NCBI RefSeq assembly: GCF_054482525.1
Contig: NZ_CM137006.1
Length of the DNA stretch: 64,000 bases
Reading direction: 5' to 3' (one strand)
Positions 22,840 to 53,962 of this stretch are shown here, in pieces (within the stretch, counting starts at the first letter, position 1; each line of letters starts with the position of its first letter). The notes under the pieces are model-generated. The model searched no databases, had not been told where the DNA came from, and was given only the letters and a program-made list of their open reading frames with translations. A program made the position numbers and the translations under genes.

Positions 22840-23555
22840 TTAAAGTCTTAATTGTCGATGATGAACCGTTAGCACGGGAGAACCTGCGCGTATTTTTGCA
22901 GGAGCAGAGCGATATTGAAATTGTTGGAGAGTGTTCAAACGCCGTGGAAGGGATCGGCGCGGTGCATAAACTGCGCCCGGATGTGCTGTTTCTCGATATC
23001 CAGATGCCGCGCATCAGTGGTCTGGAAATGGTGGGGATGCTCGACCCGGAACATCGTCCGTATATTGTTTTTCTCACCGCGTTTGACGAATACGCTATTA
23101 AAGCCTTTGAAGAACATGCCTTTGATTATCTGCTGAAGCCAATTGATGAAGCGCGACTGGAGAAAACGCTGGCGCGATTGCGTCAGGAGCGCAGCAAGCA
23201 GGATGTTTCGCTGTTACCGGAAAATCAACAGGCGCTGAAATTTATCCCTTGTACGGGGCATAGTCGGATTTATTTGCTGCAAATGAAAGATGTGGCATTT
23301 GTCAGCAGTCGGATGAGCGGTGTCTACGTTACGAGTCACGAAGGGAAAGAGGGCTTTACCGAACTGACATTACGTACCCTGGAGAGTCGTACACCACTAC
23401 TACGCTGCCATCGTCAGTATCTGGTTAACCTCGCGCATTTACAGGAGATTCGTCTGGAAGATAACGGCCAGGCCGAGTTGATTTTGCGTAATGGCTTAAC
23501 CGTGCCGGTCAGCCGTCGTTATCTGAAAAGCTTAAAAGAGGCGATTGGCCTGTAA
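22836..23555 (+). CDS. btsR: LytTR-family response regulator BtsR (YehT)
   Basis: Start placed at [15 protein letters not shown]; receiver domain plus C-terminal LytTR domain; 4-nt overlap with btsS. Confidence 0.9.
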
Positions 23556-23601
23556 AAGACTGCTAAAATGGCTTTTTGCCTCATCAACACCTGAAGGCCT
23601 C

Positions 23602-24072
23602 ATGCTAAGTAACGATATTCTGCGCAGCGTGCGCTACATTTTGAAAGCCAATAATAATGACCTGGTGCGTATTCTGGCGCTGGGTAATGTCGAAGCCACC
23701 GCGGAACAGATCGCCGTCTGGCTACGTAAAGAAGACGAAGAGGGTTTTCAGCGTTGTCCGGACATTGTTTTGTCTTCCTTCCTCAATGGCCTGATTTATG
23801 AAAAACGCGGCAAGGATGAGTCTGCTCCGGCACTGGAGCCGGAACGTCGCATTAATAACAACATCGTGCTGAAAAAATTACGCATCGCGTTTTCGCTGAA
23901 AACCGATGACATTCTGGCGATCCTCACCGAACAGCAGTTCCGCGTTTCGATGCCGGAAATTACGGCGATGATGCGTGCACCGGATCATAAAAACTTCCGC
24001 GAATGCGGCGATCAATTTTTACGTTATTTTCTGCGTGGACTGGCAGCGCGCCAGCATGTGAAGAAAAGCTAA
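23602..24072 (+). CDS. yehS: DUF1456 protein YehS
   Basis: Start placed at MLSNDILRSVRYILK; recalled match to YehS. Confidence 0.8.
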   Translation: MLSNDILRSVRYILKANNNDLVRILALGNVEATAEQIAVWLRKEDEEGFQRCPDIVLSSFLNGLIYEKRGKDESAPALEPERRINNNIVLKKLRIAFSLKTDDILAILTEQQFRVSMPEITAMMRAPDHKNFRECGDQFLRYFLRGLAARQHVKKS

Positions 24073-24698: not shown

Positions 24699-26699
24699 TC
24701 ATCCTTGTTGCTGAAGCATGTGGAATAATTGTTCGCAAAGCAAAACACCGTTATTCATTGCTTCTACCCGTGCCTCGCTTTCTGTATTACAAAATTGTGC
24801 CAACACATGTGCCAGCCGATAAAAACCGACCGCGGTGAGGTCATTCGCCAGCAACTCTGCCTGACCAATAGCACTCTGTTCCTGATAGCGCCAGCCGTTA
24901 TGGAGCAGTTGAATAAGTAACGCCTGGCAGCGCATCAGCAACTGATGAGCGGTAGACGGCACAGGCAGAACGCTGGCAGAAGGTAGCGGTGCCACAGGCG
25001 CAGTTTCTGCGTCCAGCGCCCAGGCGCGGGTTTTGGTCATCATTACCCGTGGTTCCAGTGTCAATTGCCCCTCAACAAAACTGACAAAGCCAGAAACCAG
25101 ACTCACGGGGTCGTCTGTGTGTTGCAAAAGTGCCGCCATGCGTTCAACGGCAAAAGGCGCGCTGGCTGAGGCTGGCAGTGATAAAGTCAGCAGATTATCT
25201 TCACCTTCGCCGCTGATTACCTGCGCATCCAGCGTCTGGCGGCTGCTATCCCAACCGAGTGAAATACACTCAGCGACTGGCAGAATAAATAAGTTATCCA
25301 CCTGATTAAGAGGCCGTATGCAGGCGGGGGGACGCTGGCGTAAATATTCCCGCAAAGCCACAATGCCCGACTGGCGCAATGGCGCGCTCAACATTTGCCA
25401 GGCGTCTGGCGACAGCGGCACAACGCTGCTTAAGCGGTTGCGGGTAGCTAACAACAGCTCGCCATCGGCACTGCGTTTTGCTGCTTGTGAAACAATTTGC
25501 CCACCTGCCAGTGCGCCAGCCAGAAAACTAAACAGCCGACGCGTCGCTGCCGGTGAGTTTTCCTGTTCGCTTCTCGGCCAACTACGCGAAAGATGCAAAA
25601 TACTGCCAGTGTCGGGATCGGTAAACCAGATGCGTAAACCATAATGCTCAATATCCTGCCAGCAACGCATACCTAAAGACACCAGCCGCAGATGATCAAG
25701 CTTTGCTTCTCCGGCAATGCCAGAGCCAACGACCGTGCGCCACGGCACAGGAGGAACTTCACCAACACTGTCGCGCCGGGCCATCTCTTGTGCGCAATTT
25801 AATCGACTGTTTAATGCCGCAAGCTGACGTAAGCATTCTCCGACATGATAGTGGCTGGCGCGGGCGTGGAAGGCATCAACGCTGGCGCGCAGTTGCCGTA
25901 GCGATTCACTCACCCAGCGCCAGTTGCAGCGTTCCGCCGCTTGCTGCGCGCGGCTGAAAGCAGCCTTGTAATGAATAAGCGGCTGGCTGATGCCGCCAAG
26001 CCATAACGCCTGGCTTAATTGCTGAACATATTGACGACACGCGTCGCCCTCATCGTTGGCAAACGGATCGTCAGATGATGTGACGTGTTCGCTGCGCATC
26101 TGCCAGATTAAATGAGTAAATTCCGCTTGCTGCGCTTTGGCCTGGACAAAGGCCTGTACTGCCAGTACGACATGTTCGCAAAGTGTGCCGTCAATACAAT
26201 CACAGCGTGCGAAACGAATGCTGCTGCGGGAATAAAAACGTACATCGCTCATCGGTAAGCGGGCAGAGGGAATTTCGCCCGGCGTACAGAACAACTCAAT
26301 GGTGATGCCTTTAGCGACCAGTGTCTGTGCGCGTTTGCGGGTGGCATCGGGCAGGGTAGCCAGTTCTTCCAGCCAGATTGCCGGATCCCACTCTTCTTCT
26401 TTTTCCGTAGGCTGGGTGGTGGCGCAAAGTCGCTGATAACTTAAAACCAGCATCACGCGATGGCGGCACATGCCGCTGGCCCCGCAGCTGCATTGAGCCT
26501 CTTTCAGTGCCTGACCGTTCGCCAGCTGGGTGCGGACACCGTCACTGAAGGTGGCGATTAAAGCGCCGTTCTCATGGCTGATTTCCGGGACGTTGCCATT
26601 TTCCAGTTCTTTAAGGCTGCGCTTAACAAAACCGGCATTGCTTAACGCCGTCAAAGCTTGTGGTGTCAGTTCTAATAATTCCGGCCGTAGTGAATTCAT
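24699..26699 (-). CDS. yehQ: SWIM zinc-finger protein YehQ
   Basis: 666-aa ORF with two CxC-x(n)-CxH motifs (CSCGASGMCRH and CDCIDGTLCEH); start overlaps yehP stop by 4 nt; the true start may be internal. Confidence 0.8.
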   Translation of the reverse strand: MNSLRPELLELTPQALTALSNAGFVKRSLKELENGNVPEISHENGALIATFSDGVRTQLANGQALKEAQCSCGASGMCRHRVMLVLSYQRLCATTQPTEKEEEWDPAIWLEELATLPDATRKRAQTLVAKGITIELFCTPGEIPSARLPMSDVRFYSRSSIRFARCDCIDGTLCEHVVLAVQAFVQAKAQQAEFTHLIWQMRSEHVTSSDDPFANDEGDACRQYVQQLSQALWLGGISQPLIHYKAAFSRAQQAAERCNWRWVSESLRQLRASVDAFHARASHYHVGECLRQLAALNSRLNCAQEMARRDSVGEVPPVPWRTVVGSGIAGEAKLDHLRLVSLGMRCWQDIEHYGLRIWFTDPDTGSILHLSRSWPRSEQENSPAATRRLFSFLAGALAGGQIVSQAAKRSADGELLLATRNRLSSVVPLSPDAWQMLSAPLRQSGIVALREYLRQRPPACIRPLNQVDNLFILPVAECISLGWDSSRQTLDAQVISGEGEDNLLTLSLPASASAPFAVERMAALLQHTDDPVSLVSGFVSFVEGQLTLEPRVMMTKTRAWALDAETAPVAPLPSASVLPVPSTAHQLLMRCQALLIQLLHNGWRYQEQSAIGQAELLANDLTAVGFYRLAHVLAQFCNTESEARVEAMNNGVLLCEQLFHMLQQQG

Positions 26700-27832
26700 G
26701 ACTGAAGATTCTCCGCAAGCCAGGTCGCCAGTTCGCCCGGCGTCATGGCGGCTATTTGTGCGCCGACATTAACCAGCGCCTGGGCCGTATCGTGGTCATA
26801 GCAAGGTGTTGCGGTGCTATCGAGCGCCGCCAGTCCCAGTACTTTGATGCCGCTCTGGACACACTTTTTCACCTGATGCGTCAGTAATGATGATGAACCC
26901 CCTTCGTAAAAATCGCTCACGAGGATAATGACGCTTTTCGCTGGTTGTTCAATAAGTTGCCGACCATATTCCATGGCACTGGCGATATTGGTTCCGCCGC
27001 CTAATTGCACTTTCATTAATAACTCTACCGGATCGGCAACGTCTGCCGTGAGATCAACCACGCTGGTGTCAAACGCCACCAGATGGGTACGAATACCGGG
27101 TAACTGCCATAAACAGGTCGCCATCACCGCTGAGTGGATCACCGAGTCCACCATTGATCCGCTTTGATCAACCAGTAAGACCAGTTGCCATTGTTCACTG
27201 TGGCGCTTAATGCGGCTGTTAAAGCGGGGGGATTCGATATACAACTTGCCGTGTTGCGGATGCCAGTGTTGCAGGTTGGCGCGCAGCGTACTTTTGAAAT
27301 CAAAGTTTCGCGCCAGTGGAATAAATGAGCGGCGACGGCGATCGCGGACACCAGAAAAAGCCTGACGAACTTCCTTTGCCAGTCGCGCCATAATCTCTTC
27401 AACAACCTGGTGCACTATCCGGCGGGCGGCAGCCAGCACTTCGGGATTCATCAGATGTTTAGTGTGCAAAACGGCGCGTAGCAGGCTTTCAGAAGGCTGC
27501 ATACGTTCCAGCACGTCGAGATTCGTCACCACATCTTCAATGCCGTAGCGCAGTACGGCATCGCTTTCCAGCCGCTCGATCACCTGTTGCGGAAACAGCG
27601 TGTGAATACTGTTGATCCACTTAGGGGTGGTGAGATTTGAGTCACCTAATCCACCGGAGCGTTCACCACGCTGGAGCCGTTCAGGATCGCGCCCATACAG
27701 CCACTCCAGCGCGTGGTCTATCTGCCGGGCATTGTCATCCAGCCCACAAAGGGTCGTTTCTGCCGCTTCGCCAAGAATTAATCGCCAGCGATGTAGCTCA
27801 CGGGTGGTCAGAAGATCGTTCAGTTCAGACAT
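26696..27832 (-). CDS. yehP: von Willebrand factor A (vWA) domain protein YehP
   Basis: Start placed at MSELNDLLTTRELHRW (378 aa); MIDAS-like motif VDQSGSM. Confidence 0.85.
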   Translation of the reverse strand: MSELNDLLTTRELHRWRLILGEAAETTLCGLDDNARQIDHALEWLYGRDPERLQRGERSGGLGDSNLTTPKWINSIHTLFPQQVIERLESDAVLRYGIEDVVTNLDVLERMQPSESLLRAVLHTKHLMNPEVLAAARRIVHQVVEEIMARLAKEVRQAFSGVRDRRRRSFIPLARNFDFKSTLRANLQHWHPQHGKLYIESPRFNSRIKRHSEQWQLVLLVDQSGSMVDSVIHSAVMATCLWQLPGIRTHLVAFDTSVVDLTADVADPVELLMKVQLGGGTNIASAMEYGRQLIEQPAKSVIILVSDFYEGGSSSLLTHQVKKCVQSGIKVLGLAALDSTATPCYDHDTAQALVNVGAQIAAMTPGELATWLAENLQS

Positions 27833-30104
27833 GGAAAACTCCCCAGTGTTGCAGCGATGCCAGTGCCTGCTGTTCGAGTTGTTGATGATGTGCAATGGCT
27901 TGCGGTGGACAATGCAACGGCATTTGCAGCGCTGAAACGGGAAGCTGTGCGAGCTGGTAATGCTCAAGCACCTGATGCGCCAGCGTCCCGCGTTCTCGTG
28001 GTGGTAGCCAGGCCATCGCCGCACGCAAATCGGGCAGGGCGTTAATAAAATCGTCGTCACTCAGTTGATTTAAATGACTACTGAAACCGGCGATAAATGC
28101 CGGCTGACAGGCCAGTTGATGGCGGGCCAGCGCCAGCAAACCGTGCAGTGCCTCGCCGGATTGTGCCGGGGATAATTGCGCCAGCATCGTCAGCGCCGCT
28201 TCGGCACTGGCGTTGGGATGTTCCAGACGCATCAGTGCGCCAAGAGCCGCGCCGCGATCCAGCGCCGAGGCATGAATCGCCTGACTGCGGCGCTCAAGTA
28301 AGGCTACCGCCGCAGAAAGCGAAACGCCGGGTAAATTAACGCCGCTATGTAGATCGCGCAGGATATGGCAAAGCGCCTGCCAGCTATGCAGGTGAGCGTG
28401 AAACTCCTTTTCCTCCGGTCTGCCGTTGGATTCACACAGCCAGAGTGTGCGATCGATAGCCGCGCATAACGTCGTCTGTAATATCTGCGCGCCTTGCATA
28501 CCGCTAATTTCATCCAGCCGCCATAAGGCGTATAGCACTTCCAGCGCCTGGCCCATTTCGGCAAACTGATTTTCCTGGGCGATTAATAATGTAAGTTGCT
28601 CCAGTAATTGTTGACTGAAGGACGCCAGACCCGCTAACGCCGCCTGGCTAAGACATGTGGTGATACTGCCGATTCCACCCGCGTCCAGCATATCGGCTTC
28701 TAATTTATTGCGTGCGGCTTCCTGGAGTGTGGCACCAAAGCAGGCGGCCTCAATTAATGCCGCATGTTGGCTAAGCGGGCGGGTTAATTTCCAGCGTTCT
28801 TCACCGTTGCCTGCAAGTGTCAGTGTACTTCCCTGCTGGCGCACAACCCCTGGGATCTCCAGTATTGCCAGCCGATGTAACACCTGACTTTGCGCTAGTC
28901 CATTGGGGTTAAAGCGATTTAAGGTAAGCTCCGCCGGAAGAGAGATTGCGGTACGTTCCAGTTCGCAGGTGACATCTTTTGGCAGAGGCGGTTGTGGCGT
29001 AGAAGGGGCAAGTTTACCGAATCCGTCACCCGCTAATGTGTCTATCAACGTTAGCAGAATCGGATCGGTATCGGGATGAATAACGCCGCGATAGCTCCAC
29101 GGCAACGGCGCATTCAGGGCTTCTTTAATCAGCGAGCCTGCTATGGCATCCAGCCAGTCAGTGCGTAACGGTAGTGTATGACCGCGCAACTGTGCCAGTG
29201 CCATCGCATGCAGATGAGCGGCAGCCATATCCGCTGTTGAAGCAGGCAAGTGGTGCTGGCGCAAACGGGTAAGAACCGTTTTCAGCAGTTGTTCACCTGC
29301 CTGCTGCAAGCCCCACCGCCAGCACCAGTTTTGCCAGACCGGGGCAGGCATACCGGAAAGGTATCCTGCCAGCACATCAAGGCGCTTTTCACTGTAGGGT
29401 GTGAGATAACAACCTGTAACGGCATCATCCAGTAAGAGCAATTCTGGCGTGTTAATTACCTGCGGACATTCGCGCCACATTTTTGCCAGTGCCGGAGCGT
29501 GCCAGCCACCGCAGACAACTAACACGTCGCCATTATTTTGCTGCATCGCCCATCCAATCCAGCGGGCCATAAAGGCTTCGCGCTGACGATTGAGAGCATC
29601 TCCGGGGGAGTCGCCCCGCAGTTGGGCAAAATAGTGCGCAAGTGCAGAGGGTAATGCAGTTTGCTGCCTTTCATCTTCGAACAAGTGATCCCACAGGGTG
29701 TCGCTGTTATCCATGCGGGTGGCACGCAGCAGCAAGGTCTGGCTTTCCTCTTGCGTATCAGGCGAATCGTCCTCTTCTTCACTCTGCGCCCAGCAAGGCA
29801 AATCGATGAAGTAAGTTTGTGCCTGAATACGACGAGCGGCTTGTAGCGCCTGCCACTCCGGCGAAAATTCAGCAAATGGCGTCCAGGCACCACGCCCGGG
29901 GGCCGCACCGTCCTGATACTGGCAATAACTGTAAATAGCTACCGGAAGCTGGTGGGCTAACAACAGTTCGTCTACCCGGTCATTAAAATCAGCCGGGCCT
30001 TCAATCAACACATATCGTGGCCGCTGGCTTTCGATTAACGATTTCACCAGCCGGGCGCAGGCCGGACTATGATGCCGGATGCCGACAATTAACGGCTCGC
30101 TCAT
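27825..30104 (-). CDS. yehM: large uncharacterised protein YehM
   Basis: Start placed at MSEPLIVGIRHHSP (759 aa); overlaps yehP start by 8 nt. Confidence 0.85.
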   Translation of the reverse strand: MSEPLIVGIRHHSPACARLVKSLIESQRPRYVLIEGPADFNDRVDELLLAHQLPVAIYSYCQYQDGAAPGRGAWTPFAEFSPEWQALQAARRIQAQTYFIDLPCWAQSEEEDDSPDTQEESQTLLLRATRMDNSDTLWDHLFEDERQQTALPSALAHYFAQLRGDSPGDALNRQREAFMARWIGWAMQQNNGDVLVVCGGWHAPALAKMWRECPQVINTPELLLLDDAVTGCYLTPYSEKRLDVLAGYLSGMPAPVWQNWCWRWGLQQAGEQLLKTVLTRLRQHHLPASTADMAAAHLHAMALAQLRGHTLPLRTDWLDAIAGSLIKEALNAPLPWSYRGVIHPDTDPILLTLIDTLAGDGFGKLAPSTPQPPLPKDVTCELERTAISLPAELTLNRFNPNGLAQSQVLHRLAILEIPGVVRQQGSTLTLAGNGEERWKLTRPLSQHAALIEAACFGATLQEAARNKLEADMLDAGGIGSITTCLSQAALAGLASFSQQLLEQLTLLIAQENQFAEMGQALEVLYALWRLDEISGMQGAQILQTTLCAAIDRTLWLCESNGRPEEKEFHAHLHSWQALCHILRDLHSGVNLPGVSLSAAVALLERRSQAIHASALDRGAALGALMRLEHPNASAEAALTMLAQLSPAQSGEALHGLLALARHQLACQPAFIAGFSSHLNQLSDDDFINALPDLRAAMAWLPPRERGTLAHQVLEHYQLAQLPVSALQMPLHCPPQAIAHHQQLEQQALASLQHWGVFHV

Positions 30105-30114
30105 GCATCTTTCC

Positions 30115-31203
30115 TCACGGCAGGCGGTGGCGAGCTTGATAATAAGCCTGCCAGTGAGCTTCTTTATGTGTGGCGACGCGCTGTTCGAAGTAACGGCGCA
30201 GACGCGCGCGATCTTCTTCGTTATCTTTGACGATGGTTCCGGCAATACAGTCCACCAGGTCGGCAGGCTCCCCCGCGCGATTCGCTAAAAACCAGGCGCG
30301 GACACCCACAGCATGGGCCACGTTAACGGCTTCAGCGGTGGACATAATCGCTGTCAGTGTATCCATTGACGTTTTCTTTTCGCCGTTGGCACGCAGATCG
30401 CGGAACGTGCGCACCAGTAATTCCAGTACCGTGTCAGGCACTTTATGCGGAATACCGCTATGGGCCAGCAAACGCGCCGAAGCACTGGCGACCAGTTCCA
30501 GCTCCTGGGCGAAATCCATAATCGGAAAGACAGTTTCAAAATCGAAGCGACGCTTTAGCGCAGCACTCATTTCATTGACGCCGCGATCGCGGGTATTGGC
30601 AGTGGCAATAATATTAAAGCCTTCTCGCGCATAGAGCTGACTGGCTTCACCAGTGAGTTCCGGCACCGTCATTACCCTGTCAGAAAGCATACCTAACAGA
30701 CAGTCTTGTACTTCCAGCGGTGTACGCGTTATCTCTTCAAAACGGACAATTTTGCCGTCGCGCATTCCCTGGTAAAGCGGGGCTGGGACCAGCGCTTCCG
30801 TTGACGGACCATGGTTGATAAGCAGGGCGTAGTTCCAGCCGTACTTGATTTGATCTTCAGTGGTAGATGCGCCGCCCTGGATGGTTAACCCGGCATCGCC
30901 GCTAATAGCGGTTGCCAGTAATTCAGACAGGAGAGATTTTGCGGTGCCAGGTTCCCCCACCAACATCAAACCGCGCCCGGTTGCGAGAGTGACTAACATG
31001 CGTTCGACAGCGGAGGGGCTAATCACGACTTTACGGCTAATATTTTGTGCTTCGTCGCCAAGGATAAAAGCGCGGGCCGCAGGCAAACTTAACTGCCAAC
31101 CTGGCGGGCAAGGTGCGTTATCATTTTGTTTTAATTTTGCCAGTTCATCGGCGTATAACACAGCGGCAGGCGGACGCTGCAGATGATTATTCTGCGGTGA
31201 CAT
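30115..31203 (-). CDS. yehL: MoxR-like AAA+ ATPase YehL
   Basis: Start placed at MSPQNNHLQRPPAAVLYADE (362 aa); Walker A-like GEPGTAKS. Confidence 0.85.
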   Translation of the reverse strand: MSPQNNHLQRPPAAVLYADELAKLKQNDNAPCPPGWQLSLPAARAFILGDEAQNISRKVVISPSAVERMLVTLATGRGLMLVGEPGTAKSLLSELLATAISGDAGLTIQGGASTTEDQIKYGWNYALLINHGPSTEALVPAPLYQGMRDGKIVRFEEITRTPLEVQDCLLGMLSDRVMTVPELTGEASQLYAREGFNIIATANTRDRGVNEMSAALKRRFDFETVFPIMDFAQELELVASASARLLAHSGIPHKVPDTVLELLVRTFRDLRANGEKKTSMDTLTAIMSTAEAVNVAHAVGVRAWFLANRAGEPADLVDCIAGTIVKDNEEDRARLRRYFEQRVATHKEAHWQAYYQARHRLP

Positions 31204-31312
31204 ATATTCATCCCTGAAATGTATTAATGAAATAAACGATATTTTACGCGCAATAAATGTTTGGCGCATTAGTTGTTTGAGCGAAAAATATCTGGAAAGC
31301 AGATCACAGTAA

Positions 31313-31397
31313 ATAAAAAAACCTGCTGGTGAGGCAGGTTCTTTGATTTACTACTTTCAGGCCTAACACCACGGCCTGTGCAACATCGTGTTCCAAC
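31313..31397 (-). ncRNA. orzO: putative OrzO-1 antitoxin sRNA (boundaries inferred)
   Basis: Minus-strand promoter (-35 TTGCAA, 17-bp spacer, -10 TATAAT as revcomp of 31404-31409) and minus-strand terminator hairpin acctgc...gcaggt plus T-run (31313-31340); contains the complement of a 19-nt stretch that recurs in the zorO-1 5' UTR (31543-31561). Confidence 0.45.
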
Positions 31398-31426
31398 GAA
31401 CGAATTATAACCATCGGTGGACCCCG

Positions 31427-31454
31427 TTGCAATTAAGATAATGAGATTTATAAT
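31427..31454 (+). promoter_or_regulatory. putative sigma70 promoter of zorO-1 (TTGCAA-16 bp-TATAAT); palindromic -35 shared with the divergent orzO promoter
   Basis: -35 ttgcaa 31427-31432, -10 tataat 31449-31454; predicts a 5' UTR of about 174 nt. Confidence 0.5.
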
Positions 31455-31635
31455 CCTGACTGTTGGGACGTTGCGCCGGATCGAACCCATTTCAAGTCCT
31501 GGCTACCGGACGGGTGGTGCCGCAGGTAGTGCCCTGATCCGGAGTGCAACATCGTGGTCCAACATACGTAAACCAGTATCGACAGGCAGTGTAAGGGTAA
31601 GGTGCTGGTGTTGCGCTCCTTAATAAGGAGAGCGA

Positions 31636-31725
31636 ATGGACACGCTGACACAAAAGTTAACCGTGCTCATTGCTGTACTGGAGCTATTAGTGGCTCTGTT
31701 ACGGTTGATTGATTTGTTGAAGTAA
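31636..31725 (+). CDS. zorO: type I toxin ZorO-like small hydrophobic peptide (29 aa), copy 1
   Basis: ATG preceded by SD aaggag; translation MDTLTQKLTVLIAVLELLVALLRLIDLLK; assignment to ZorO of E. coli O157 is from memory; below the ORF-track cut-off. Confidence 0.65.
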   Translation: MDTLTQKLTVLIAVLELLVALLRLIDLLK

Positions 31726-31746
31726 TGGGCAAATTGAAACGCAACT

Positions 31747-31774
31747 AAGGGGGAAAACCGCTTCCCCCTTTAAT
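31747..31774 (+). terminator. rho-independent terminator downstream of zorO-1
   Basis: aagggggaaaaccgcttccccctttaat: GC stem followed by T-run. Confidence 0.7.
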
Positions 31775-31921
31775 AAAATGATTACATCTTCCATTAATTC
31801 ACCCGATAACTTTTTTCATATTTATAAATTCATCGATTTTATAATCAACGTACTATTTGGCCGGGATGTGAATAATCATGGTGGGCTATTGGCGAAAAAT
31901 ATCTGGAAAGTAGATCGTAGA

Positions 31922-32006
31922 AAATAAAAGAACCTGCTGGTGAGGCAGGTTCTTTTATTTACTACTTTGATGTTAAGTTACTGATAGTGCAACATGGCAT
32001 CTCAAC
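31922..32006 (-). ncRNA. orzO: putative OrzO-2 antitoxin sRNA (boundaries inferred)
   Basis: Same promoter/terminator architecture as copy 1; pairing segment differs from copy 1 and matches its own UTR target (32156-32174). Confidence 0.45.
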
Positions 32007-32244
32007 GAACGAATTATAACCACCGCTGGACCGTGTTGCAATTAAGATAATGAGATTTATAATCCTGACTGTTGGGAAGTTGCGCCGGATCGAACCCATT
32101 TCAAGTCCTGGCTACCGGACGGGTGGTGCCGCAGGTAGTGCTCTGATCCGGAGTGCAACATGGCGACTCAACATACGTAAACCAGTATCGACAGGCAGTG
32201 TAAGGGTAAGGTGCTGGTGTTGCGCTCCTTAATAAGGAGAGCGG

Positions 32245-32334
32245 ATGGACACGCTGACACAAAAGTTAACCGTGCTCATTGCCGTACTGGAGCTATTAGT
32301 GGCTCTGTTACGGTTGATTGATTTGTTGAAGTAA
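32245..32334 (+). CDS. zorO: type I toxin ZorO-like small hydrophobic peptide (29 aa), copy 2
   Basis: Identical 29-aa translation to copy 1; SD aaggag upstream. Confidence 0.65.
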   Translation: MDTLTQKLTVLIAVLELLVALLRLIDLLK

Positions 32335-32355
32335 TGGGCAAATTGAAACGCAACT

Positions 32356-32383
32356 AAGGGGGAAAACCGCTTCCCCCTTTAAT
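32356..32383 (+). terminator. rho-independent terminator downstream of zorO-2
   Basis: aagggggaaaaccgcttccccctttaat. Confidence 0.7.
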
Positions 32384-32455
32384 AAAGTAATATTCTATTA
32401 GTTGGTTGAATATATTCTGTAGTTTACGATTAAAAATTGCTATTACAGTTTCAGG

Positions 32456-32707
32456 TTATTCACCTCGTAATTTCCGCTCATCAATACACTCATCTCTTAT
32501 ATAAATCAACGCATCATTTATTAGCGGGTCAACATCCTCTCGATCACGTTGATGAAATGTTGGACGTAGCCGGAACCGTTCCAGTCGGTAAACGGAACCT
32601 GTAAATAATTCAGAGCATTTATGGATCTCAAGTCTGAAGGAAAACGGATCTTCAGGTACAGGGACCTCATAATTGTAAATAGCGACCAGCTCTTTTTGCA
32701 CGCTCAT
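32456..32707 (-). CDS. small hypothetical protein, possibly YehK-like
   Basis: 83-aa ORF directly downstream of yehI on the same strand; identity not confidently recalled. Confidence 0.45.
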   Translation of the reverse strand: MSVQKELVAIYNYEVPVPEDPFSFRLEIHKCSELFTGSVYRLERFRLRPTFHQRDREDVDPLINDALIYIRDECIDERKLRGE

Positions 32708-32767: not shown

Positions 32768-35700
32768 TTAATGGAAAATGACGTCGGGTGCGCTTAACGC
32801 CTCACTCAAATCAAACACATCAAGTTCGGCAAAAGTGACAGATTTATTGTCACGGTATACATGAAGAGAACGGAAGCTCATTAGCGCTTTGCTATCAACA
32901 TTGTAGTGGTTAAAACCGGATGAAAACTTAAGGACCAGCCGGTACTCGCCCAGGTCATAGACAAATGCGTTCTCATAGCCTGACTCCCAGCCTTTGTATC
33001 GCATTCCCATAAGTTGCCCAACGGTAGCAGATTTACCTTCCCAGCGATTCAAACTATTACTGGCTGACTCGTCAGGCGTGAGCAGTACTGTGCGCCGTGC
33101 CAATTGGCGAAAAGGCGGCATAATTTCGTAATCGGCAAAAAGCTGTGCAAACTCACTGCGCATTTCTGCTGCCATTTCTAACGGGTGGGCAATGCCAATC
33201 AGAGCATCGGCAGGCAGGTCAATTGGCTCATCTTGCTCATTGCAGAACTCCCCCTCAGCGGCCACACGAAAGGCGTTGAGTAAACGACGCGGTTCATTTG
33301 CCGGATAAACACCCCATATTAATCGCTGAGTAACCAGACGGGTAAAGGGATGATTAACAAACAGAGAATGAAAATCTGCCAGCGACCAGCGTCGGGTGGT
33401 GCGCAGGGCAGTTTCAAGACGCGGGAGCAGGTTTTTGCTCACCTGAGTGGCATCTTTTTTTAGCCCTTTTAGTCGGGCCAGTGCCTCGGGTGCTTTCAGT
33501 TGATCGTCATCGGCGCGCAACCGGGGAACGCTTTTCTGGCGAACGTTTTGCTGATCAAAGATAACCGGGTTAAGGTTTTCATCGAAGCGAACGGTAAATT
33601 GCCGTGGACCAAAATCAAAAATCAACGCCTGCGGATCATCAAGACCCAGTGTTGGGACTAATCTGTCCGCTAACTGTTCCTGGCTTAGCCCTCGATTTTC
33701 TGCGACCACCTGAAGAAATTCCGCCGCGTTATCACGTAAGGGGCGGGATTTCGCCCGTTGCGATATATGATGCAGCTGTATCAGTGCCATATCATTATTC
33801 ATCTGAGTAAGGATGTTCAGGCCGCTGACGGCACGGGCAGATTTGCCTTCCTGTGGCCAGGCAAGGATCTGTGTTGTTAGATCCCGTGCCGTGCTTTCGT
33901 CGCCAAAGAGACTTAACGCCAGAAATGCCCAGTTGTCTTTTGCGGGAGCACCAGCTTGTTGCCACGCGGTGAAAAGATCCCAGGCAAAGGCTGCCAGCGT
34001 TTGCGGCTGGCAAAACGTTTTCAGCTGTTCCAGTCCGCTATAAAAACGTCCGCCCTGGGTAAAGCGCAGCATTTCGCCGATAATTTCCAGAGCGTCATCA
34101 GTAACAGGTTGATTATTCGTGATAAGGCGCGGCCTGGACCACATTGCCGGCTGCCAGAAATCAGGGGCTTTTGGAATGCGTGTCGGGTAAATCTCTATTG
34201 GACTCTGTTTAAGTAATTGCTCCAGGGCAGGCCATACATCTTTACGCTGCCAGCGGTTTGCCACGGTTTGCAGTAACTCGCCATGTCCCTGTTCGTAAAG
34301 TAAACGCAGGGCAAGTAATGCAGCTTCGCTATTATCGCTGGATTTGGTGAAGACAAGAGGGATAAGTGCAGTAGCTGTATGTTCCGGCCATTGTAAAATC
34401 CACTGGCGGGCCAGATCTCGCTGCGCCGCGAAACGTCGCCAGACGCGGGCAACGGGCAGGGCCAGTTCGGTTGCGCCGAAATTTAAAATTAACGGAAATG
34501 TTTCTTTTGGACGATGTGAAAAAGCCAACAGCAGACCTGGTAGAGCATCCAATCCGAAGATACTGAGAAAATAGTCCTCACCCGCAGACAGATGCTTTTT
34601 CTCATTGATACGTAGCCAGAAAGTCAAAGCCATCTCACGCGGCAACTGCGCCAATAAATACAGGTTCCAGATACTCTTTTCCCGACGATAGCGTGAGTAG
34701 CTGTCATTTTCCCATATGTTAATTAACACTTCTACGTGACCGCTGTGAAGCGCCTGTTCTGCTAATTGAGCTTCCGGGGAGCTCCAGCCATTCATGATCT
34801 CTTCAACCCGCCCTGGGTAGTAATGCCACTGAACAATGAGTGAATTGCGTGCAGCATCCAGTTTTCCGGGGAGTATATAATTCAAAAACAGCCATACATC
34901 ATCTCCAAAACCCAGCTCCTGTAGTACAACTCGTCCACTTTTTTGTTCCATGCGTTCCGCAAGAGATTCCGTGCTGAAATAACGGGCAGACGCAGTGGCG
35001 GCAAGCCTCTCTCGTTCGCCTGGTTGCCAGTAAACTTGCGGCGTTAATTCGAACGGTGCCAAATCAAGACGTGGAACTGTCATTTTTTTCTTACTACGCC
35101 ACGGTGGTGAAACGAGGATTTCAGGCATTTGGCTGTTATCGGTGCTATCAATAACCGTTTTGGACGGTGCCGATAAATAACTATTCAGCATTGCCCGGGC
35201 TTGAGTACTTAACCACGGCATCACCTCTTCTGCCAGTTGTGGCTGCGATGCCATCAGCGTTTGTAACAGCGTACGCCAGTATTCATCGCGTGCTTTTTGC
35301 TGTGCAGGCAGCTTTTTGTCTTCAATGATTGGATAACCAGGGCGCGCAGGTGGTTCTTTTAACGCCAGCAGTTCTGCTAATGCGGCGAGCGTCGCATGGG
35401 GGAAGTTTTTACTGTATTTAGCCACACGTTGCAGGCTGGGTTTGTTTTTATCAGCAACTAACAGCAAGGTGCGGATGACTTGCGGATGGTTAATTTGTAC
35501 CAGCAGACTGCCGCAATCTTCTTTATGGGCATACATCGCGAGGCGCGGAACGGCTGCCAGTCCTTGTTCGCGCAAAAGGGCGGCGCAGGCCGCGTAGCCG
35601 AAGCGGTTTTCTTGTGACATGTAGCTGGCTTCGCGATCGCTAAATACGTCCAGGCCCCAGTATCGTTCGAGTTTTTTTACCGCCGTATTATCAGTAGCAA

Positions 35701-36400
35701 CGACCTTTAACCACTCCTTTGAATGGAGACTTGACCGGGAGCTTTCAAAACTGGCGAGTTCATTGGCTATTTCAGGTTTTTCCGGGAGGATCAGCGCAAT
35801 AAAAGGACGGCGAATTTTGGGTATTCCTGGCAGTGCGGCAATGAGTTTATCGGCACAACGCTGCCAGCAACTTTCCTCTGCCAGCGACAGATGCTTACGC
35901 AAACGGAGATCGAAATCGTTATAGGTCGCGGAGCCATAACCGTAGCTATAGTCCTCGTCCTGATACTGCAAAGTGACGACCAGTGAGTCACTCTCATAAC
36001 GCCGCGCAATGCACTGACGCGATATCACTACATCCGTCGCATATTCCAGCCCCTCTTGTTGCACGATTTCATCAAGTAACTGCTGGCTGTCATTTTGCGC
36101 GATACAGATCAGAGCCGCCATGGTAAGGGCTGGGATTGACGGTTTATGCTCGCCAGTCAAATTGATTGCCTGCTGGATGGCGGACTGCCACTCCAGTGAG
36201 CATTTATCATAATTCCAGGTGATATTTTCCTTCTGGCCTGCTTGTTGTAGTAATTCATCTCCCAATGTCTGGATGAGACTTCCAGTGATAACGGACACTG
36301 GTTCGCCCGGCCAGCGACGATGACTGAGCGGCGTTTTGCCTTTTTTATATTTCAGTTCCAGTTGGGCGTTATCCGCCAGCCACGGTAATTCCTTGTCCAT
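32768..36400 (-). CDS. yehI: large DUF4132-family protein YehI
   Basis: 1210-aa ORF; shares long blocks with the adjacent MolR-like ORF (FAWDLFTAWQ.AGAP, LDFGPRQFTV.FDE, RLIWGVY). Confidence 0.85.
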   Translation of the reverse strand: MDKELPWLADNAQLELKYKKGKTPLSHRRWPGEPVSVITGSLIQTLGDELLQQAGQKENITWNYDKCSLEWQSAIQQAINLTGEHKPSIPALTMAALICIAQNDSQQLLDEIVQQEGLEYATDVVISRQCIARRYESDSLVVTLQYQDEDYSYGYGSATYNDFDLRLRKHLSLAEESCWQRCADKLIAALPGIPKIRRPFIALILPEKPEIANELASFESSRSSLHSKEWLKVVATDNTAVKKLERYWGLDVFSDREASYMSQENRFGYAACAALLREQGLAAVPRLAMYAHKEDCGSLLVQINHPQVIRTLLLVADKNKPSLQRVAKYSKNFPHATLAALAELLALKEPPARPGYPIIEDKKLPAQQKARDEYWRTLLQTLMASQPQLAEEVMPWLSTQARAMLNSYLSAPSKTVIDSTDNSQMPEILVSPPWRSKKKMTVPRLDLAPFELTPQVYWQPGERERLAATASARYFSTESLAERMEQKSGRVVLQELGFGDDVWLFLNYILPGKLDAARNSLIVQWHYYPGRVEEIMNGWSSPEAQLAEQALHSGHVEVLINIWENDSYSRYRREKSIWNLYLLAQLPREMALTFWLRINEKKHLSAGEDYFLSIFGLDALPGLLLAFSHRPKETFPLILNFGATELALPVARVWRRFAAQRDLARQWILQWPEHTATALIPLVFTKSSDNSEAALLALRLLYEQGHGELLQTVANRWQRKDVWPALEQLLKQSPIEIYPTRIPKAPDFWQPAMWSRPRLITNNQPVTDDALEIIGEMLRFTQGGRFYSGLEQLKTFCQPQTLAAFAWDLFTAWQQAGAPAKDNWAFLALSLFGDESTARDLTTQILAWPQEGKSARAVSGLNILTQMNNDMALIQLHHISQRAKSRPLRDNAAEFLQVVAENRGLSQEQLADRLVPTLGLDDPQALIFDFGPRQFTVRFDENLNPVIFDQQNVRQKSVPRLRADDDQLKAPEALARLKGLKKDATQVSKNLLPRLETALRTTRRWSLADFHSLFVNHPFTRLVTQRLIWGVYPANEPRRLLNAFRVAAEGEFCNEQDEPIDLPADALIGIAHPLEMAAEMRSEFAQLFADYEIMPPFRQLARRTVLLTPDESASNSLNRWEGKSATVGQLMGMRYKGWESGYENAFVYDLGEYRLVLKFSSGFNHYNVDSKALMSFRSLHVYRDNKSVTFAELDVFDLSEALSAPDVIFH

Positions 36401-36409
36401 GCTCTTTCC

Positions 36410-39400
36410 TTATTCAAACAGGGCTTCAATATCGTTAATTAGCTCGCTGGCGGTGATGGCATCGAGTACGGAGAGCTGCGCTTCCTGTGTTGAATTACTC
36501 CTCCAGCCATAGCTTTCTGCTTTGCCTTCCCATAGCCACAGCTTGCTTAAGATTTGCTCGGCACTCAGTTCGGCTGGTGACATACCCACCGCAAAACCTT
36601 CATCGATTTCCATGATTAACGACCAGCGGCCCAGAGGTTTGATCATCCAGCCGATCCAGCCTGCATCCAGCGGGGTGCCCTTTATCCAACCTTTATTCGC
36701 CAGTCCCATGACCCGACCGCTCGGGCATTTTCTGCCTGCCCAGCGGATCAATTCGCTGGCATTGCGCTCGGTTTCTGTCAGGGCGTAACTGTTACGGTCG
36801 AGCTGGCGAAACGGCGGTAGCAGTTCGTAGTCGGCAAAAAGCTGACCAAAGGCGGCAGCATCCGTGGGTGATATTTCCAGAACGTGAGGAATACCAACAG
36901 AGATATCGCCTTCCGGCGGGGTGAAAAGATCATCGTCAGCGGTGCTGTAGCTGTTATCTTCCGCCACGCGAAAGCAAGCCAGTAGCTCGTTTTCGGCGCT
37001 ATAAACGCCCCAAATCAGACGGCGGGTTAAGTGACGAACCAGCGGATGCTCAACCAGGAAGAGCTGAAAGTTTTCCGGCGACCAGCGGCGGCGCAGGCAC
37101 ATGGCGGATTCCAGCCTTGCTACCTGCTGGGCGGCGACGGTACGCGCATCTTTTTTCAGCAATTTGTAGCGGTTAACAGCATCGTTCGCCTGTGATTCAT
37201 CATCGCTTTTATTGGGTTTAGGTAAGTCTTTCAGGCGGCTGCCGGAAACATCGCGCACAAACGGTTTTAAGGTTTCATCAAAGCTGACGGTGAACTGCCG
37301 TGGGCCAAAATCCAGCAGCAGCGAACCGTTATCATCCAGACCGAGATCCGGTGCTAACCGGTCTTCAAGTTCCGCCACCGTGAGTTCGCGGCTCTCGGCA
37401 ATGTCGGCAATTTTTTCTTTCGCCCGCTCCTGTAAGGCTTTGAATTTCAGTTTCTGGGCGATGCCGTTAAGCTGCATCAGGGCGATATCGCTGCCGATAG
37501 CAGCGAGAATATCCAACCCAACGGTGGCACGTTTATGCTGAGATTCGCCAGGCCAGGCGCGGATTAATGGCGTCAGTTTGCGGGCGGCGTCATCGTTACC
37601 GAGAACGCCTAACGCAGTGAACGCCCAACTCTCTTTCGACGGCGCGCCAGCGGTCTGCCAGGCGGTAAACAGATCCCAGGCAAATTCAGCCAGTGAGTCG
37701 GCGGTACAGGCATCTTTCACCTGCAATAATCCCGGATACAGCGCCTCCTCCTGATGGAAGCGGAGCATTTCACCGAGGTGCTGGAGTGCGCTATCGGGCA
37801 GTGATTGGGCGCTTGCTTTTAATACCGGGCGGTTCCAGAGCGATGGCTGATAAAAGGCCGGAAGAGTGGGGATTTTTGTCGGGTGATTATCTAAGGGATC
37901 GAGCGCAAGCAGAGCGTTCACCGCGTCTGTTACTTCCGGCTGGTTATAACGCCGGGCGATTTCTTGCAGTAATGGCTGATGACCGTTTTCGGTAAGCATA
38001 CGCAAGGCAGCGCGGGCGTTATCCTGTGCTTCACCGGATTTGCCGAGCGCCGAAGGTAGCAGGCCGGTAATGGCGTGTTCCGGGTATTTCAGCAGCCAGG
38101 TGCGGGCGTCTTGTCGTAGGGTTTTGAGTTTGTTGAAGGCGCGGGCGATCAGTGGCGCTAATTCGATAGCCGCAAAATATTGTGCTACAGGCAGAGCTTC
38201 TTGTGGATAGCGTGAAAAGGAGTGAATAAAACCCTGTAACCCAGTGAGTTGCAGGTGCGTCATGACAAACTCGACACCGACGTGTGGCTCTTTACTGAGG
38301 ACATTCCACGCCTGCGCTGTCTTTTCGATAGGCAGGGTGGCTAACATGTAAAGCTGCCATTCCCGTTGATAGGAGTGCCAGAAGGTTTTAAATTCGCTGA
38401 TCAGCGCGGAATAATGTCCCCTTTGCCAGAGATCTATAGCAGCATCAGGCGCTTTCATATACTGGCCATTATTCCAGCGATTGAAACCCAGACGTGCCAG
38501 GTAGTTCTGAATATCCTCTTTTTGGCCGATGTCTATTTGATGTGCGTGCCAGCGATGCCTTGCATGAATCTCTTTTTCTGCCGTCTCGGTCAATGTGCAG
38601 CATGACTCCAACGATAATGGCGTTAAATCCAATACCGGTATAACAGATTTTTTCTTTTTCGAAAGCCAGGGCGGTGAGACTAATACGGCAGGCAGTAGAT
38701 CGGCGCAGGCATGGTTTGAGGGCTGTGTCAGTTGTTGCAGGCATGCTTTCAGCACTGCAACTGCGGGTGTTGAGAGCCAGGGAGTGACCTGTTCTGCTAG
38801 TGCCGGTTGCGAGATAAGCATCGTCATTAGCATAATGCGCCAACTATTCTCTTCTTTTTGCGCAAGAAGTTCCGCCAGTGCCGCCAGTGCCGTGTGTGGG
38901 AACGCAGCGCAAGCCTTAGTCATTCGTTCATGGCAGCGTTTAGTTTTGCCAGACACACGTATAAGTAGCATTAATGCTTGTGGGTGATTGATCTCTGCGA
39001 GAATACTTCCGCAAAGATCAGCATAAGCATAGGGGGCGAAGCGAGCGATTCCGGCAATCCCTTGCTCCTGCAAAACGGTGACATTCCAGATGCAACCATG
39101 GTAATAGTCATTAAAAAGGTCGTACGCGCAATAAGATTCCAGTGCTTTGAGCAAGGAAGATTCTTGTACAACAAGTTTCAGCCATTCAACAGTTTGGATA
39201 TTTTTCTGCTCCAGTAACCGTCGTGCGATTTCTTCTGCAATCTCCGGGCGTTCCGGTAGCATTAGCGCTACCATCGGTTGTTGAACGGGAGGAATATCAG
39301 GCAAAGCTGTAATGAATTTATCTACACAGCGTTGCCACAAAGTTTCTTCTGCTAGAGCCAAATGTTTACGCAGTCGAACGTCAAAGGGGGTAACACAATG

Positions 39401-40159
39401 TGCATGGTTTAATAATGGCTGAAAAGTAATGTGTATGCTTATTCTGTGATAAGTGCAATCGAACGAGATATATTGCATGGCAATAAACATATCCACGGCA
39501 AATTCTAGTCCGTAGACATAGACAATTTCATCCATGAGTTCAGGGCATTCGTCCCAGAATTTACGTGAAACCAGAACAACCTGTACAGCCAACGCAGCAG
39601 GAGAAAGTGGACCATTAGCGAGAGCTTCATTGATATTCTGCTGCCAGTTAGCAGAACATGCACTGAAATCGTATGTTGTTATTTTTCCTGATAGATTATG
39701 AATATCCTGACCTAAATTCATAAGGAGGCTGTCTTGTGGTTCGCTTACAGCATCCCCAGGAAAACGTCGGGAAGGTAAGGCCTCCTGAGACTTTTTCTCC
39801 GATAGATGGATAGTGGAATCATCTGTCAGCCACGGGCATGGTGTCTCAGCAGGTTCAGCAACCATACTTTGGTCAAATACGACTGTGGTTTCTGCCACGC
39901 CAGTTGTATCTACTTCGATCGTTTCTATTTTGATTGCGGGTTGGGATGGCGAAGATAATTCTTCCACATACCCCTTCTTCACCTTCTCCGCAATCAGCTT
40001 CAGTCCCGCTTTTTCCGCCGCTGCTGCATCCGCAAAGCTTTTTACCTGGTTTTGCCCTTTGGTGCCAACTTTTCCCCAACAGATATGCAACTCGTTTCCC
40101 TGTTGCTCCACCGCCCAGAATTTATGTGATTTTTCGTCCTGAAAGATAAAGTGCCTCAT
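36410..40159 (-). CDS. molR: WGR-domain / DUF4132 protein MolR (YehH), intact
   Basis: 1249-aa uninterrupted ORF; N-terminus MRHFIFQDEKSHKFWAVEQQGNELHICWGKVGTKG resembles a WGR domain; K-12 carries a split pseudogene. Confidence 0.8.
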   Translation of the reverse strand: MRHFIFQDEKSHKFWAVEQQGNELHICWGKVGTKGQNQVKSFADAAAAEKAGLKLIAEKVKKGYVEELSSPSQPAIKIETIEVDTTGVAETTVVFDQSMVAEPAETPCPWLTDDSTIHLSEKKSQEALPSRRFPGDAVSEPQDSLLMNLGQDIHNLSGKITTYDFSACSANWQQNINEALANGPLSPAALAVQVVLVSRKFWDECPELMDEIVYVYGLEFAVDMFIAMQYISFDCTYHRISIHITFQPLLNHAHCVTPFDVRLRKHLALAEETLWQRCVDKFITALPDIPPVQQPMVALMLPERPEIAEEIARRLLEQKNIQTVEWLKLVVQESSLLKALESYCAYDLFNDYYHGCIWNVTVLQEQGIAGIARFAPYAYADLCGSILAEINHPQALMLLIRVSGKTKRCHERMTKACAAFPHTALAALAELLAQKEENSWRIMLMTMLISQPALAEQVTPWLSTPAVAVLKACLQQLTQPSNHACADLLPAVLVSPPWLSKKKKSVIPVLDLTPLSLESCCTLTETAEKEIHARHRWHAHQIDIGQKEDIQNYLARLGFNRWNNGQYMKAPDAAIDLWQRGHYSALISEFKTFWHSYQREWQLYMLATLPIEKTAQAWNVLSKEPHVGVEFVMTHLQLTGLQGFIHSFSRYPQEALPVAQYFAAIELAPLIARAFNKLKTLRQDARTWLLKYPEHAITGLLPSALGKSGEAQDNARAALRMLTENGHQPLLQEIARRYNQPEVTDAVNALLALDPLDNHPTKIPTLPAFYQPSLWNRPVLKASAQSLPDSALQHLGEMLRFHQEEALYPGLLQVKDACTADSLAEFAWDLFTAWQTAGAPSKESWAFTALGVLGNDDAARKLTPLIRAWPGESQHKRATVGLDILAAIGSDIALMQLNGIAQKLKFKALQERAKEKIADIAESRELTVAELEDRLAPDLGLDDNGSLLLDFGPRQFTVSFDETLKPFVRDVSGSRLKDLPKPNKSDDESQANDAVNRYKLLKKDARTVAAQQVARLESAMCLRRRWSPENFQLFLVEHPLVRHLTRRLIWGVYSAENELLACFRVAEDNSYSTADDDLFTPPEGDISVGIPHVLEISPTDAAAFGQLFADYELLPPFRQLDRNSYALTETERNASELIRWAGRKCPSGRVMGLANKGWIKGTPLDAGWIGWMIKPLGRWSLIMEIDEGFAVGMSPAELSAEQILSKLWLWEGKAESYGWRSNSTQEAQLSVLDAITASELINDIEALFE

Positions 40160-40257
40160 TCTGCATCCCTGTAATTTTATCCAGTTGAATGCTGATGCTA
40201 CCAGTATTTATGCGGGTTAGAGAGAGACAAAATCGCAAGAAAACAACTTTAGGAATT

Positions 40258-40290
40258 TATAAAGAAAAGGCGCTGTCGATACAGCGCCTT
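40258..40290 (-). terminator. rho-independent terminator downstream of metG
   Basis: Minus-strand hairpin aaggcgctgtcgatacagcgcctt followed by a U-run. Confidence 0.7.
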
Positions 40291-53614: not shown

Positions 53615-53962
53615 TCATACTTCAGAACACATACTCAATGTGTAAACAGCCATCTCCCCATCGGGATTAGAAGGGCGTAATACAAATATCGGTATACTGC
53701 CATTGTCAATGTATGTGGCTGCAACCCCTCCGTCAGGTGTAGCATACATCTTTGCGATGCTTTTTTGACCTACAAAATCAAGTCTCCAAGTTTTACCGCC
53801 AAGATTTATGGTCATTTTTTTATCTTGTATATCAAAAGTTGAATCTACAGAAACTTTCTGACTTCCCGAGTCAATATGACCTTCCTGTATTGCTTTACAG
53901 GAAAAGGTTGTGGCGTGGCCCATCACTGGAATTAACAAAGCGGCAAATACTAGTTTTTTCAT
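53615..53962 (-). CDS. hypothetical secreted protein
   Basis: Start placed at MKKLVFAALLIPVMGHA (signal peptide); divergent from the XRE-family gene. Confidence 0.45.
   Translation of the reverse strand: MKKLVFAALLIPVMGHATTFSCKAIQEGHIDSGSQKVSVDSTFDIQDKKMTINLGGKTWRLDFVGQKSIAKMYATPDGGVAATYIDNGSIPIFVLRPSNPDGEMAVYTLSMCSEV

Follow-up and report, generated by a model that had tools for sequence, protein, structure and literature searches.

Two giant neighbouring genes, molR and yehI, lie on the minus strand of a 64,000-nucleotide (nt) stretch of Escherichia coli DNA (contig NZ_CM137006.1, assembly GCF_054482525.1; hereafter the window), where the region of both genes is 100% identical to strain SCU-102. 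Together with YehL, YehM, YehP and YehQ, the giant genes make up a conserved cassette of five parts, of which the giant-gene array is the one that varies, and within molR the variation is concentrated in two hypervariable segments, V1 and V2. The molR-type gene (36410..40159) is intact and encodes a 1249-amino-acid (aa) WGR and DUF4132 protein of the clade termed B below. Its neighbour yehI (32768..36400), likewise intact, encodes a 1210-aa DUF4132 paralog that lacks WGR.

The partner genes lie on the same strand as the giant genes. YehL (30115..31203) is a MoxR-family AAA+ ATPase (AAA_5, expect value (E) 1.6e-34) with an intact Walker A motif, GEPGTAKS, and its closest solved relative is the AAA ring of midasin (E 7e-10). 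It has given its name to a subfamily, one of seven within MoxR, to which no function has been assigned (PMC3893208). YehM (27825..30104) is a DUF5682 protein by Pfam, YehP (26696..27832) a VWA_CoxE protein (E 3e-70) with the MIDAS motif DQSGS, and YehQ (24699..26699) a SWIM zinc-finger protein, intact in the window strain. With its Walker A motif and the adjoining MIDAS protein YehP, YehL thus forms a MoxR-VWA gene pair.

This association reaches far beyond E. coli. At 50 of 78 loci in other organisms, at least one gene of the [WGR]-N-DUF4132 type directly adjoins homologues of YehL, YehM, YehP and YehQ. The hosts include Erwinia, Serratia, Burkholderia, Variovorax, Lysobacter, Stenotrophomonas, Mycolicibacterium and Trichlorobacter, as well as metagenomic contigs, and the cassette spans Proteobacteria and Actinobacteria, with the gene order permuted in some loci. 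The MolR family comprises 5871 representative clusters at 50% identity (E <= 1e-3), across which only the C-terminal ~620 aa are kept. The number of giant genes varies: there is usually one, there are three in Escherichia and Klebsiella and at least four in tandem in Duganella, and Massilia arrays hold at least five to seven copies, part of them without WGR. The Massilia arrays were found in M. rubra (locus L061), M. aquatica (L049, L072 and L085) and M. frigida (L068); some of them have no YehLMPQ inside the 21-kb locus, the complete cassette being found at a different locus of that genome. In a metagenomic locus (L013, 6883-12213), a HAMP-HisKA-HATPase histidine kinase is joined to WGR-DUF4132 in a single 1776-aa gene call, which adjoins a response regulator, lies upstream of the MoxR gene and is either a real fusion or the result of a missed stop.

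As the original prediction held, MolR and YehI are tandem paralogs that resemble each other over most of their length (38% identity over 1180 aligned positions, BLASTP E = 0), and the WGR domain is confined to MolR. Pfam places WGR at aa 5-67 and DUF4132 at aa 973-1158 of MolR, and in YehI finds DUF4132 alone, at aa 954-1138. Both proteins score far above the DUF4132 (PF13569) gathering cutoff of 27 (MolR, 170.5 bits; YehI, 160.6 bits), and the WGR domain of MolR (PF05406) is recognised both by the sequence model and by its fold. The start of YehI aligns to MolR residue 109, so YehI lacks the linker as well as the WGR domain.

The WGR domain (39959..40159, aa 1-67) is followed in MolR by a disordered linker (39851..39952, aa 70-103) with a predicted local distance difference test score (pLDDT) of 32-33, which cannot be aligned across alleles (11-26% identity). 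Then come V1 (38960..39835, aa 109-400), predicted to be a folded helical-repeat domain (pLDDT mostly 75-98), a conserved spacer segment (38660..38959, aa 401-500; 75-88% aa identity across alleles), V2 (38060..38659, aa 501-700), and the conserved core (36413..38059, aa 701-1249), which consists of HEAT/ARM-like repeats and an alpha/beta DUF4132 domain and has an AlphaFold 2 (AF2) pLDDT of 95. The residues that are invariant throughout the family include several Trp, Asp, Arg, His and Gln and a C-terminal Ser-Glu (Ser1238-Glu1239 in MolR).

How variable are these segments? The DNA flanking molR is 96-97% identical to that of E. coli K-12, and within the gene identity to K-12 falls to 51-65% at nt ~150-1350 and ~1650-2100. 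V1 occurs in at least four allele classes with 36-59% aa identity between them, and V2 in at least three, with 51-58%; aa 701-1249 are 91-98% identical in all Escherichia alleles. All four pairings of two V1 classes (alpha and gamma) with two V2 classes (i and ii) were found, namely alpha+i in the window, alpha+ii in P0033, gamma+i in P0040 and gamma+ii in MRSN_B, showing that V1 and V2 recombine and reassort independently. The V1 allele of the window is present in 153 of 5426 E. coli genomes (coverage >=80%) and, at 96% identity, in E. fergusonii, and it has more in common with the B genes of Klebsiella (51-62%) than with the remaining B alleles of E. coli (28-56%). Gene conversion by YehI or by a third paralog, A, was rejected as the source of V1, the identities being only 25-46%. 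Milder variable segments occupy the V1 and V2 positions of yehI: aa 1-300 are 83-86% identical to those of most strains and 99% to those of an O157 strain, and aa 401-600 are 76-96% identical between strains.

A raised background mutation rate at the locus was considered and discarded. The synonymous divergence (dS) of the flanking metG and apbC and of yehL, yehM and yehP is 0.1-0.2, equal to that of the conserved core and halves of molR, so only the hypervariable cassettes are exceptional. The ratio of nonsynonymous to synonymous divergence (dN/dS) is 0.09-0.15 in the conserved core and halves of intact genes, and 0.03-0.15 across the conserved halves together with yehL, yehM and yehP. The intact genes, presumed functional in the original prediction, are under purifying selection, as are yehL, yehM and yehP. 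Within classes of the hypervariable cassettes, dN/dS is 0.24-0.37, or 0.6 where it derives from very few changes. Positive selection on these segments was also tested, and the ratio (omega) stayed below 1 throughout, dS being saturated between V1 classes and between classes generally.

The array was once larger. A third, upstream paralog, A (WGR and DUF4132, 1265 aa), is present in at least 1630 of the 5426 E. coli genomes, about 30%, and three genes in the order WGR-bearing, WGR-bearing, WGR-less are found in E. whittamii, two more Escherichia species, K. oxytoca and K. spallanzanii. Three clades, A, B and YehI, separate in a tree built on the C-terminal 600 aa, and the window's molR falls in the B clade. 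Every clade contains both Klebsiella and Escherichia members, so the triplication is older than the split between the two genera, and their ancestor carried three paralogs, A, B and YehI. In strain PEC1003 the molR allele of the window is the second of three array genes, which allows a direct comparison. Against PEC1003 A and B, the first seven informative sites of the window gene (nt 5-60) are A-type, and past ~nt 140 all are B-type except for one lone A-type site near nt 300. The junction zone (40055..40103, ~nt 57-105 of molR) is mixed, with A-type sites upstream and B-type sites downstream. An A-type 5' end followed by a B-type body identifies the two-gene array as the product of a ~3.8-kb deletion, and the window's molR is an A'/B chimera in which the A promoter and first ~60 nt are fused to the B body. 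Recombination between the near-identical WGR-coding 5' ends of A and B eliminated A and set the B body behind A's promoter. The molR of K-12 opens with the same A-type sequence.

It follows that the window strain does not preserve the ancestral state, as had been proposed: three paralogs occur in Klebsiella, E. whittamii and about 30% of E. coli, and the window's molR is itself a deletion chimera. Nor is an intact molR distinctive of this strain. E. coli usually has one: it was found in 14 of the 18 complete genomes inspected, on which all the intactness counts here are based, and full-length MolR (1233-1264 aa) populates many protein clusters of E. coli and E. fergusonii, two of which hold 931 and 1361 members. 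All six core genes (B, yehI, yehL, yehM, yehP and yehQ) are intact in 9 of the 18, and in 9 at least one component is hit by a pseudogene mutation or by an insertion sequence (IS) or transposon (Tn). In strain FG92-1, IS1 removed the entire molR-to-yehQ block as one unit. In the ST131 sublineage L1a (E. coli 21368, locus L005, 1-9325), a blaCTX-M-15 transposon (IS26/Tn3 fragments, aac(3)-IIe) stands where paralog A and the 5' portion of B used to be (PMC9334617), making the molR locus a chromosomal landing site for resistance genes.

That molR is a fragmented pseudogene in K-12 proved correct. The K-12 gene is annotated as frameshifted with an internal stop, and comparison with the nearest intact allele located two lesions, a TTA to TGA change at codon 275 and an extra G at nt 2846 (a +1 shift), which account for the three known molR fragments. 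The window gene is nevertheless not the intact counterpart of the K-12 gene, since their cassette classes differ. Over the region of aa 71-400, K-12 and the window share 48-61% nt identity, and the window protein shares ~40% aa identity with IMT5155 and MRSN346647, the intact alleles closest to K-12 there. The yehQ of K-12 (K-12 locus 21627-23627) is also a pseudogene, with an internal stop, and K-12 is thus without two components of the cassette. The original prediction also overlooked the hypervariable segments, the differences in copy number and the tie to the yehLMPQ MoxR/VWA genes.

How is the array expressed? The spacer between molR and yehI (36401..36409, minus strand) is only 9 bp long, as the original prediction stated, and contains a Shine-Dalgarno-like AAGGA; no terminator-like hairpin was found on the coding strand between the two genes. 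In K-12 the molR transcription start has been mapped upstream by rapid amplification of 5' cDNA ends (5'-RACE); BglJ-RcsB activates the promoter, and H-NS does not repress it (PMC3950696). Co-transcription of molR and yehI, suspected from the short gap, is therefore likely. A terminator-like hairpin of metG (40267..40290, minus strand; 10-bp stem and T tail) marks the upstream limit of the unit, and another lies 3' of yehK (32356-32379, minus strand), so that the two hairpins flank a molR-yehI-yehK unit on either side.

The promoter region of molR (40160..40266, minus strand) is nearly identical in sequence to that of K-12. It carries a LexA (SOS) box, AACTGGATAAAATTACAGGG (40167..40186, minus strand), 7-26 nt upstream of the ATG; its core, CTGG-ATAAAATT-ACAG at 40169-40184, reads CTGG-N8-ACAG and has one mismatch to the CTGT-N8-ACAG consensus. 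The box is kept in E. coli, E. whittamii and K. oxytoca, and the remainder of the spacer diverges in Klebsiella. In a published list, molR is one of the LexA-regulon genes whose SOS box is known (PMC6590174). Some 20 nt upstream of the SOS box there is another element of LexA type, ACTGGTAGCATCAGCAT (40191-40206, minus strand), which is weaker, and E. whittamii has CTGT-N8-ACAT at its position.

Why would a conserved cassette maintain so variable a component? We tentatively favour, at somewhat less than even confidence, a reading in which MolR and YehI are adaptors that can be exchanged for one another and recognise the targets of a MoxR/VWA remodelling machine, perhaps engaged in genetic conflict or damage surveillance. 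The conserved tail would dock each paralog onto the YehL-YehP(-YehM-YehQ) machine, V1 and V2 would set which target is bound, and the WGR head would position the complex on DNA or RNA. MolR and YehI would then be interchangeable specificity subunits, like the target-recognition domains of HsdS. The SOS-box promoter suggests that in Escherichia and Klebsiella the array is deployed when DNA is damaged, as when a prophage is induced or DNA enters the cell. Alleles that are deep, recombining and shared across species, expansion of the paralogs and frequent gene loss point to genetic conflict, of an anti-phage or anti-mobile-element kind, over housekeeping. A bolder version is possible, if rather doubtful: a widespread and hitherto unrecognised bacterial surveillance or immune-like system in which giant WGR-helical repeat-DUF4132 sensors with ancient, trans-species recognition cassettes of HsdS-like design feed a midasin-like YehLMPQ motor from within the core genome and under SOS control, with K-12 as a natural double mutant (molR, yehQ).

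Several observations weigh against the adaptor reading. The presumed functional tie of MolR and YehI to YehLMPQ rests on gene neighbourhood, and in E. coli yehI and yehL are 1.5 kb apart, with yehK and zor-orz genes in the gap, so a single operon from yehI to yehL is not established. Pfam recognised no nuclease or other effector domain in the cassette proteins, and a search of PADLOC-DB 2.0 with all six returned no family. Within-class dN/dS never exceeds 1, and positive selection is thus not demonstrated. A good SOS box was found in just 3 of 54 upstream regions, all of them from Escherichia or Klebsiella and none from Erwinia, Serratia or Betaproteobacteria, and the idea that the box is a universal trait of the system was accordingly rejected. 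Finally, the locus occupies a fixed core-genome position amid housekeeping genes, outside mobile defence islands, and many strains tolerate the loss of components.

One alternative is that MolR and YehI themselves carry the activity and are clients, matured or remodelled by a YehL/YehP MoxR-VWA chaperone in the way that Rubisco is by CbbQ-CbbO and NorB by NorQ-NorD. Characterised MoxR-VWA pairs do serve dedicated client complexes (PMC3893208), the giant genes are tightly linked to yehLMPQ, and the invariant polar residues of DUF4132 (W, D, R, H, Q and S-E) could form an active or binding site. However, fold searches recognised no catalytic fold, a single machine goes with anything from one to at least seven divergent paralogs, and most of the variation falls outside the conserved domain. 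The last two features fit specificity subunits better than a client with a single activity, and we consider clients unlikely.

About equally unlikely is a role as an accessory to DNA-damage response or repair, in which the WGR domain, like that of PARPs, would sense DNA breaks and bring in the AAA+/VWA remodeller, which would remove or rearrange protein-DNA complexes; the variation would be tolerated drift plus recombination and not the outcome of conflict. The SOS box at molR and the core-genome location of the locus would suit such a role; so would the WGR fold, which in a fold search matches that of PARP1 in complex with a double-strand break, and the SWIM zinc finger of YehQ, a candidate binder of nucleic acid or protein. 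In Deinococcus, one DUF4132 gene and one WGR gene are strongly induced within the DdrO radiation regulon (PMC8533742). On the other hand, the alleles of a repair factor in one species do not normally diverge to 40% aa identity, and repair factors do not normally come in arrays of seven; YehI and further paralogs have no WGR domain; the SOS box does not extend beyond Escherichia and Klebsiella; and K-12 and many pathogens live without intact copies.

It is more improbable still that the locus is a decaying relic, a cryptic cluster without present function that is being lost piecemeal and whose variable segments reflect relaxed constraint. The disruptions in half of the sampled genomes, and the strain that has lost the whole block, are what decay would produce, but the low dN/dS of the conserved halves and of yehL, yehM and yehP is not, and neither are open reading frames of more than 1200 aa that are still intact in most strains, hypervariable cassettes that are predicted with confidence to fold and show omega below 1 within classes, and a gene cassette kept from Actinobacteria to Proteobacteria. 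For intact alleles, decay is largely refuted. That MolR is a transcriptional regulator of molybdate metabolism, as the gene name, older annotations ("molybdate metabolism regulator", "MolR family transcriptional regulator") and the description of WGR as the DNA-binding domain of "MolR-like TFs" (PMC7824862) would have it, is highly improbable and the label is unsupported by any observation in this analysis: K-12, the strain of the molybdate genetics, has a molR pseudogene with two lesions, Pfam finds no helix-turn-helix (HTH) or other transcription-factor domain in MolR or YehI, the neighbours in all taxa are yehLMPQ (MoxR/VWA) and not the mod or moa genes expected beside such a regulator, and molybdenum genes were unaffected in the Deinococcus study (PMC8533742).

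Among known systems, the gene cassette resembles the MoxR AAA+/VWA pairs RavA-ViaA, CbbQ-CbbO and NorQ-NorD in its adjacent AAA_5 MoxR ATPase and MIDAS VWA protein and in the presumed remodelling of a dedicated partner. It differs from them by three more conserved partners (DUF5682, SWIM and the giant WGR-DUF4132 protein), one of which is hypervariable and multi-copy. With the vWA-MoxR ternary conflict systems (MoxR-vWA-beta-propeller) it shares a MoxR and vWA core with a diversified third component. However, the match of YehL to Pfam bpMoxR is weak (E 0.0012; 18.4 bits, under the cutoff of 27), bpMoxR matches on related contigs are weak or faint, and no beta-propeller was found in the cassette proteins, which thus do not belong to the bpMoxR ternary systems; the third component is instead WGR-helical repeat-DUF4132, and effector-associated or death-like domains are missing, as is a PADLOC match. 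Midasin (Rea1/MDN1) likewise couples AAA_5 modules to a MIDAS domain and acts on large, HEAT-repeat-rich assemblies, but it is a single eukaryotic polypeptide of 4,700-4,900 aa in ribosome biogenesis, whereas YehL and YehP are separate bacterial proteins. The likeness to HsdS of type I restriction-modification is one of design only, two variable recognition modules in a conserved framework that reassort by recombination, without any sequence or fold relationship. The nearest known WGR counterparts are the domains of PARP1/2/3 and B. fragilis Q64V53 (PDB 2ra8). Unlike PARPs, MolR has neither the PARP catalytic domain (none was found in MolR or YehI by Pfam or fold search, which sets them apart from poly(ADP-ribose) polymerases) nor the helical regulatory domain, and its WGR is tied via the disordered linker to a helical-repeat body.

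Existing annotation already covers the genes, their paralogy and the K-12 pseudogene. Literature searches yielded no functional study on DUF4132, DUF5682, combinations of the yeh genes or WGR with MoxR and vWA, and no description of the cassette polymorphism, the three-gene ancestral array and its A'/B deletion, the paralog expansions or the variable-subunit reading. Of the E. coli genes still uncharacterised, yehI, molR and yehLMPQ are some of the largest, and recognising the giant genes as the variable, multi-copy, cassette-shuffling part of a cross-phylum cassette gives an ill-defined "y-gene" cluster a concrete hypothesis that can be tested in the best of the genetic model organisms. Deep divergence separates the cassette classes of E. 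coli populations, of which there are at least 4 x 3, and the standard laboratory strain is without molR as well as yehQ. Two notions are corrected at the same time, the name "molybdate regulator" and the idea that an intact two-gene array is the ancestral locus.

Some further matches of the cassette proteins may be recorded. On YehM and YehQ, Pfam at E up to 10 gives DUF5682 and SWIM only. A likeness of the YehM N-terminus (GIRHHSP) to TraB/TIKI-type motifs is unsupported at that threshold and is not claimed. NCBIfam returned sub-threshold GvpN, McrB and cobaltochelatase-like matches and nothing else. Six PHROGs families (phrog_20839, 36602, 30700, 33984, 31592 and 29006) match YehI, YehM, YehP and YehQ near end to end with E close to 0. 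The profiles are near-identical to the E. coli proteins and as long, and as a link to phages they are uninformative; most likely they represent chromosomal sequence swept into prophage predictions.

The interval between the giant genes and yehL has features of its own. In the window strain yehK (32354..32707, minus strand), which has no Pfam family, is a pseudogene with an internal stop; it is frameshifted in AVS0790, IMT5155 and AHB10 and intact in K-12. Between yehK and yehL the zor-orz type I toxin-antitoxin locus occurs twice in tandem (31281-32321), with OrzO-P antitoxin RNAs recognised by Rfam at 31315-31390 and 31926-31999 (minus strand, about 90 bits each) and a 300-nt direct repeat (31378-31677 and 31987-32286, 94% identity). 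K-12 retains a remnant of only ~215 bp at this position. The zor-orz insert explains the low G+C content (0.43) over 31000-32500. Elsewhere in the window, a perfect CTGT-N8-ACAG palindrome, CTGTATTGCTTTACAG, at 53885-53900 is the sole LexA-box-like site with zero mismatches.

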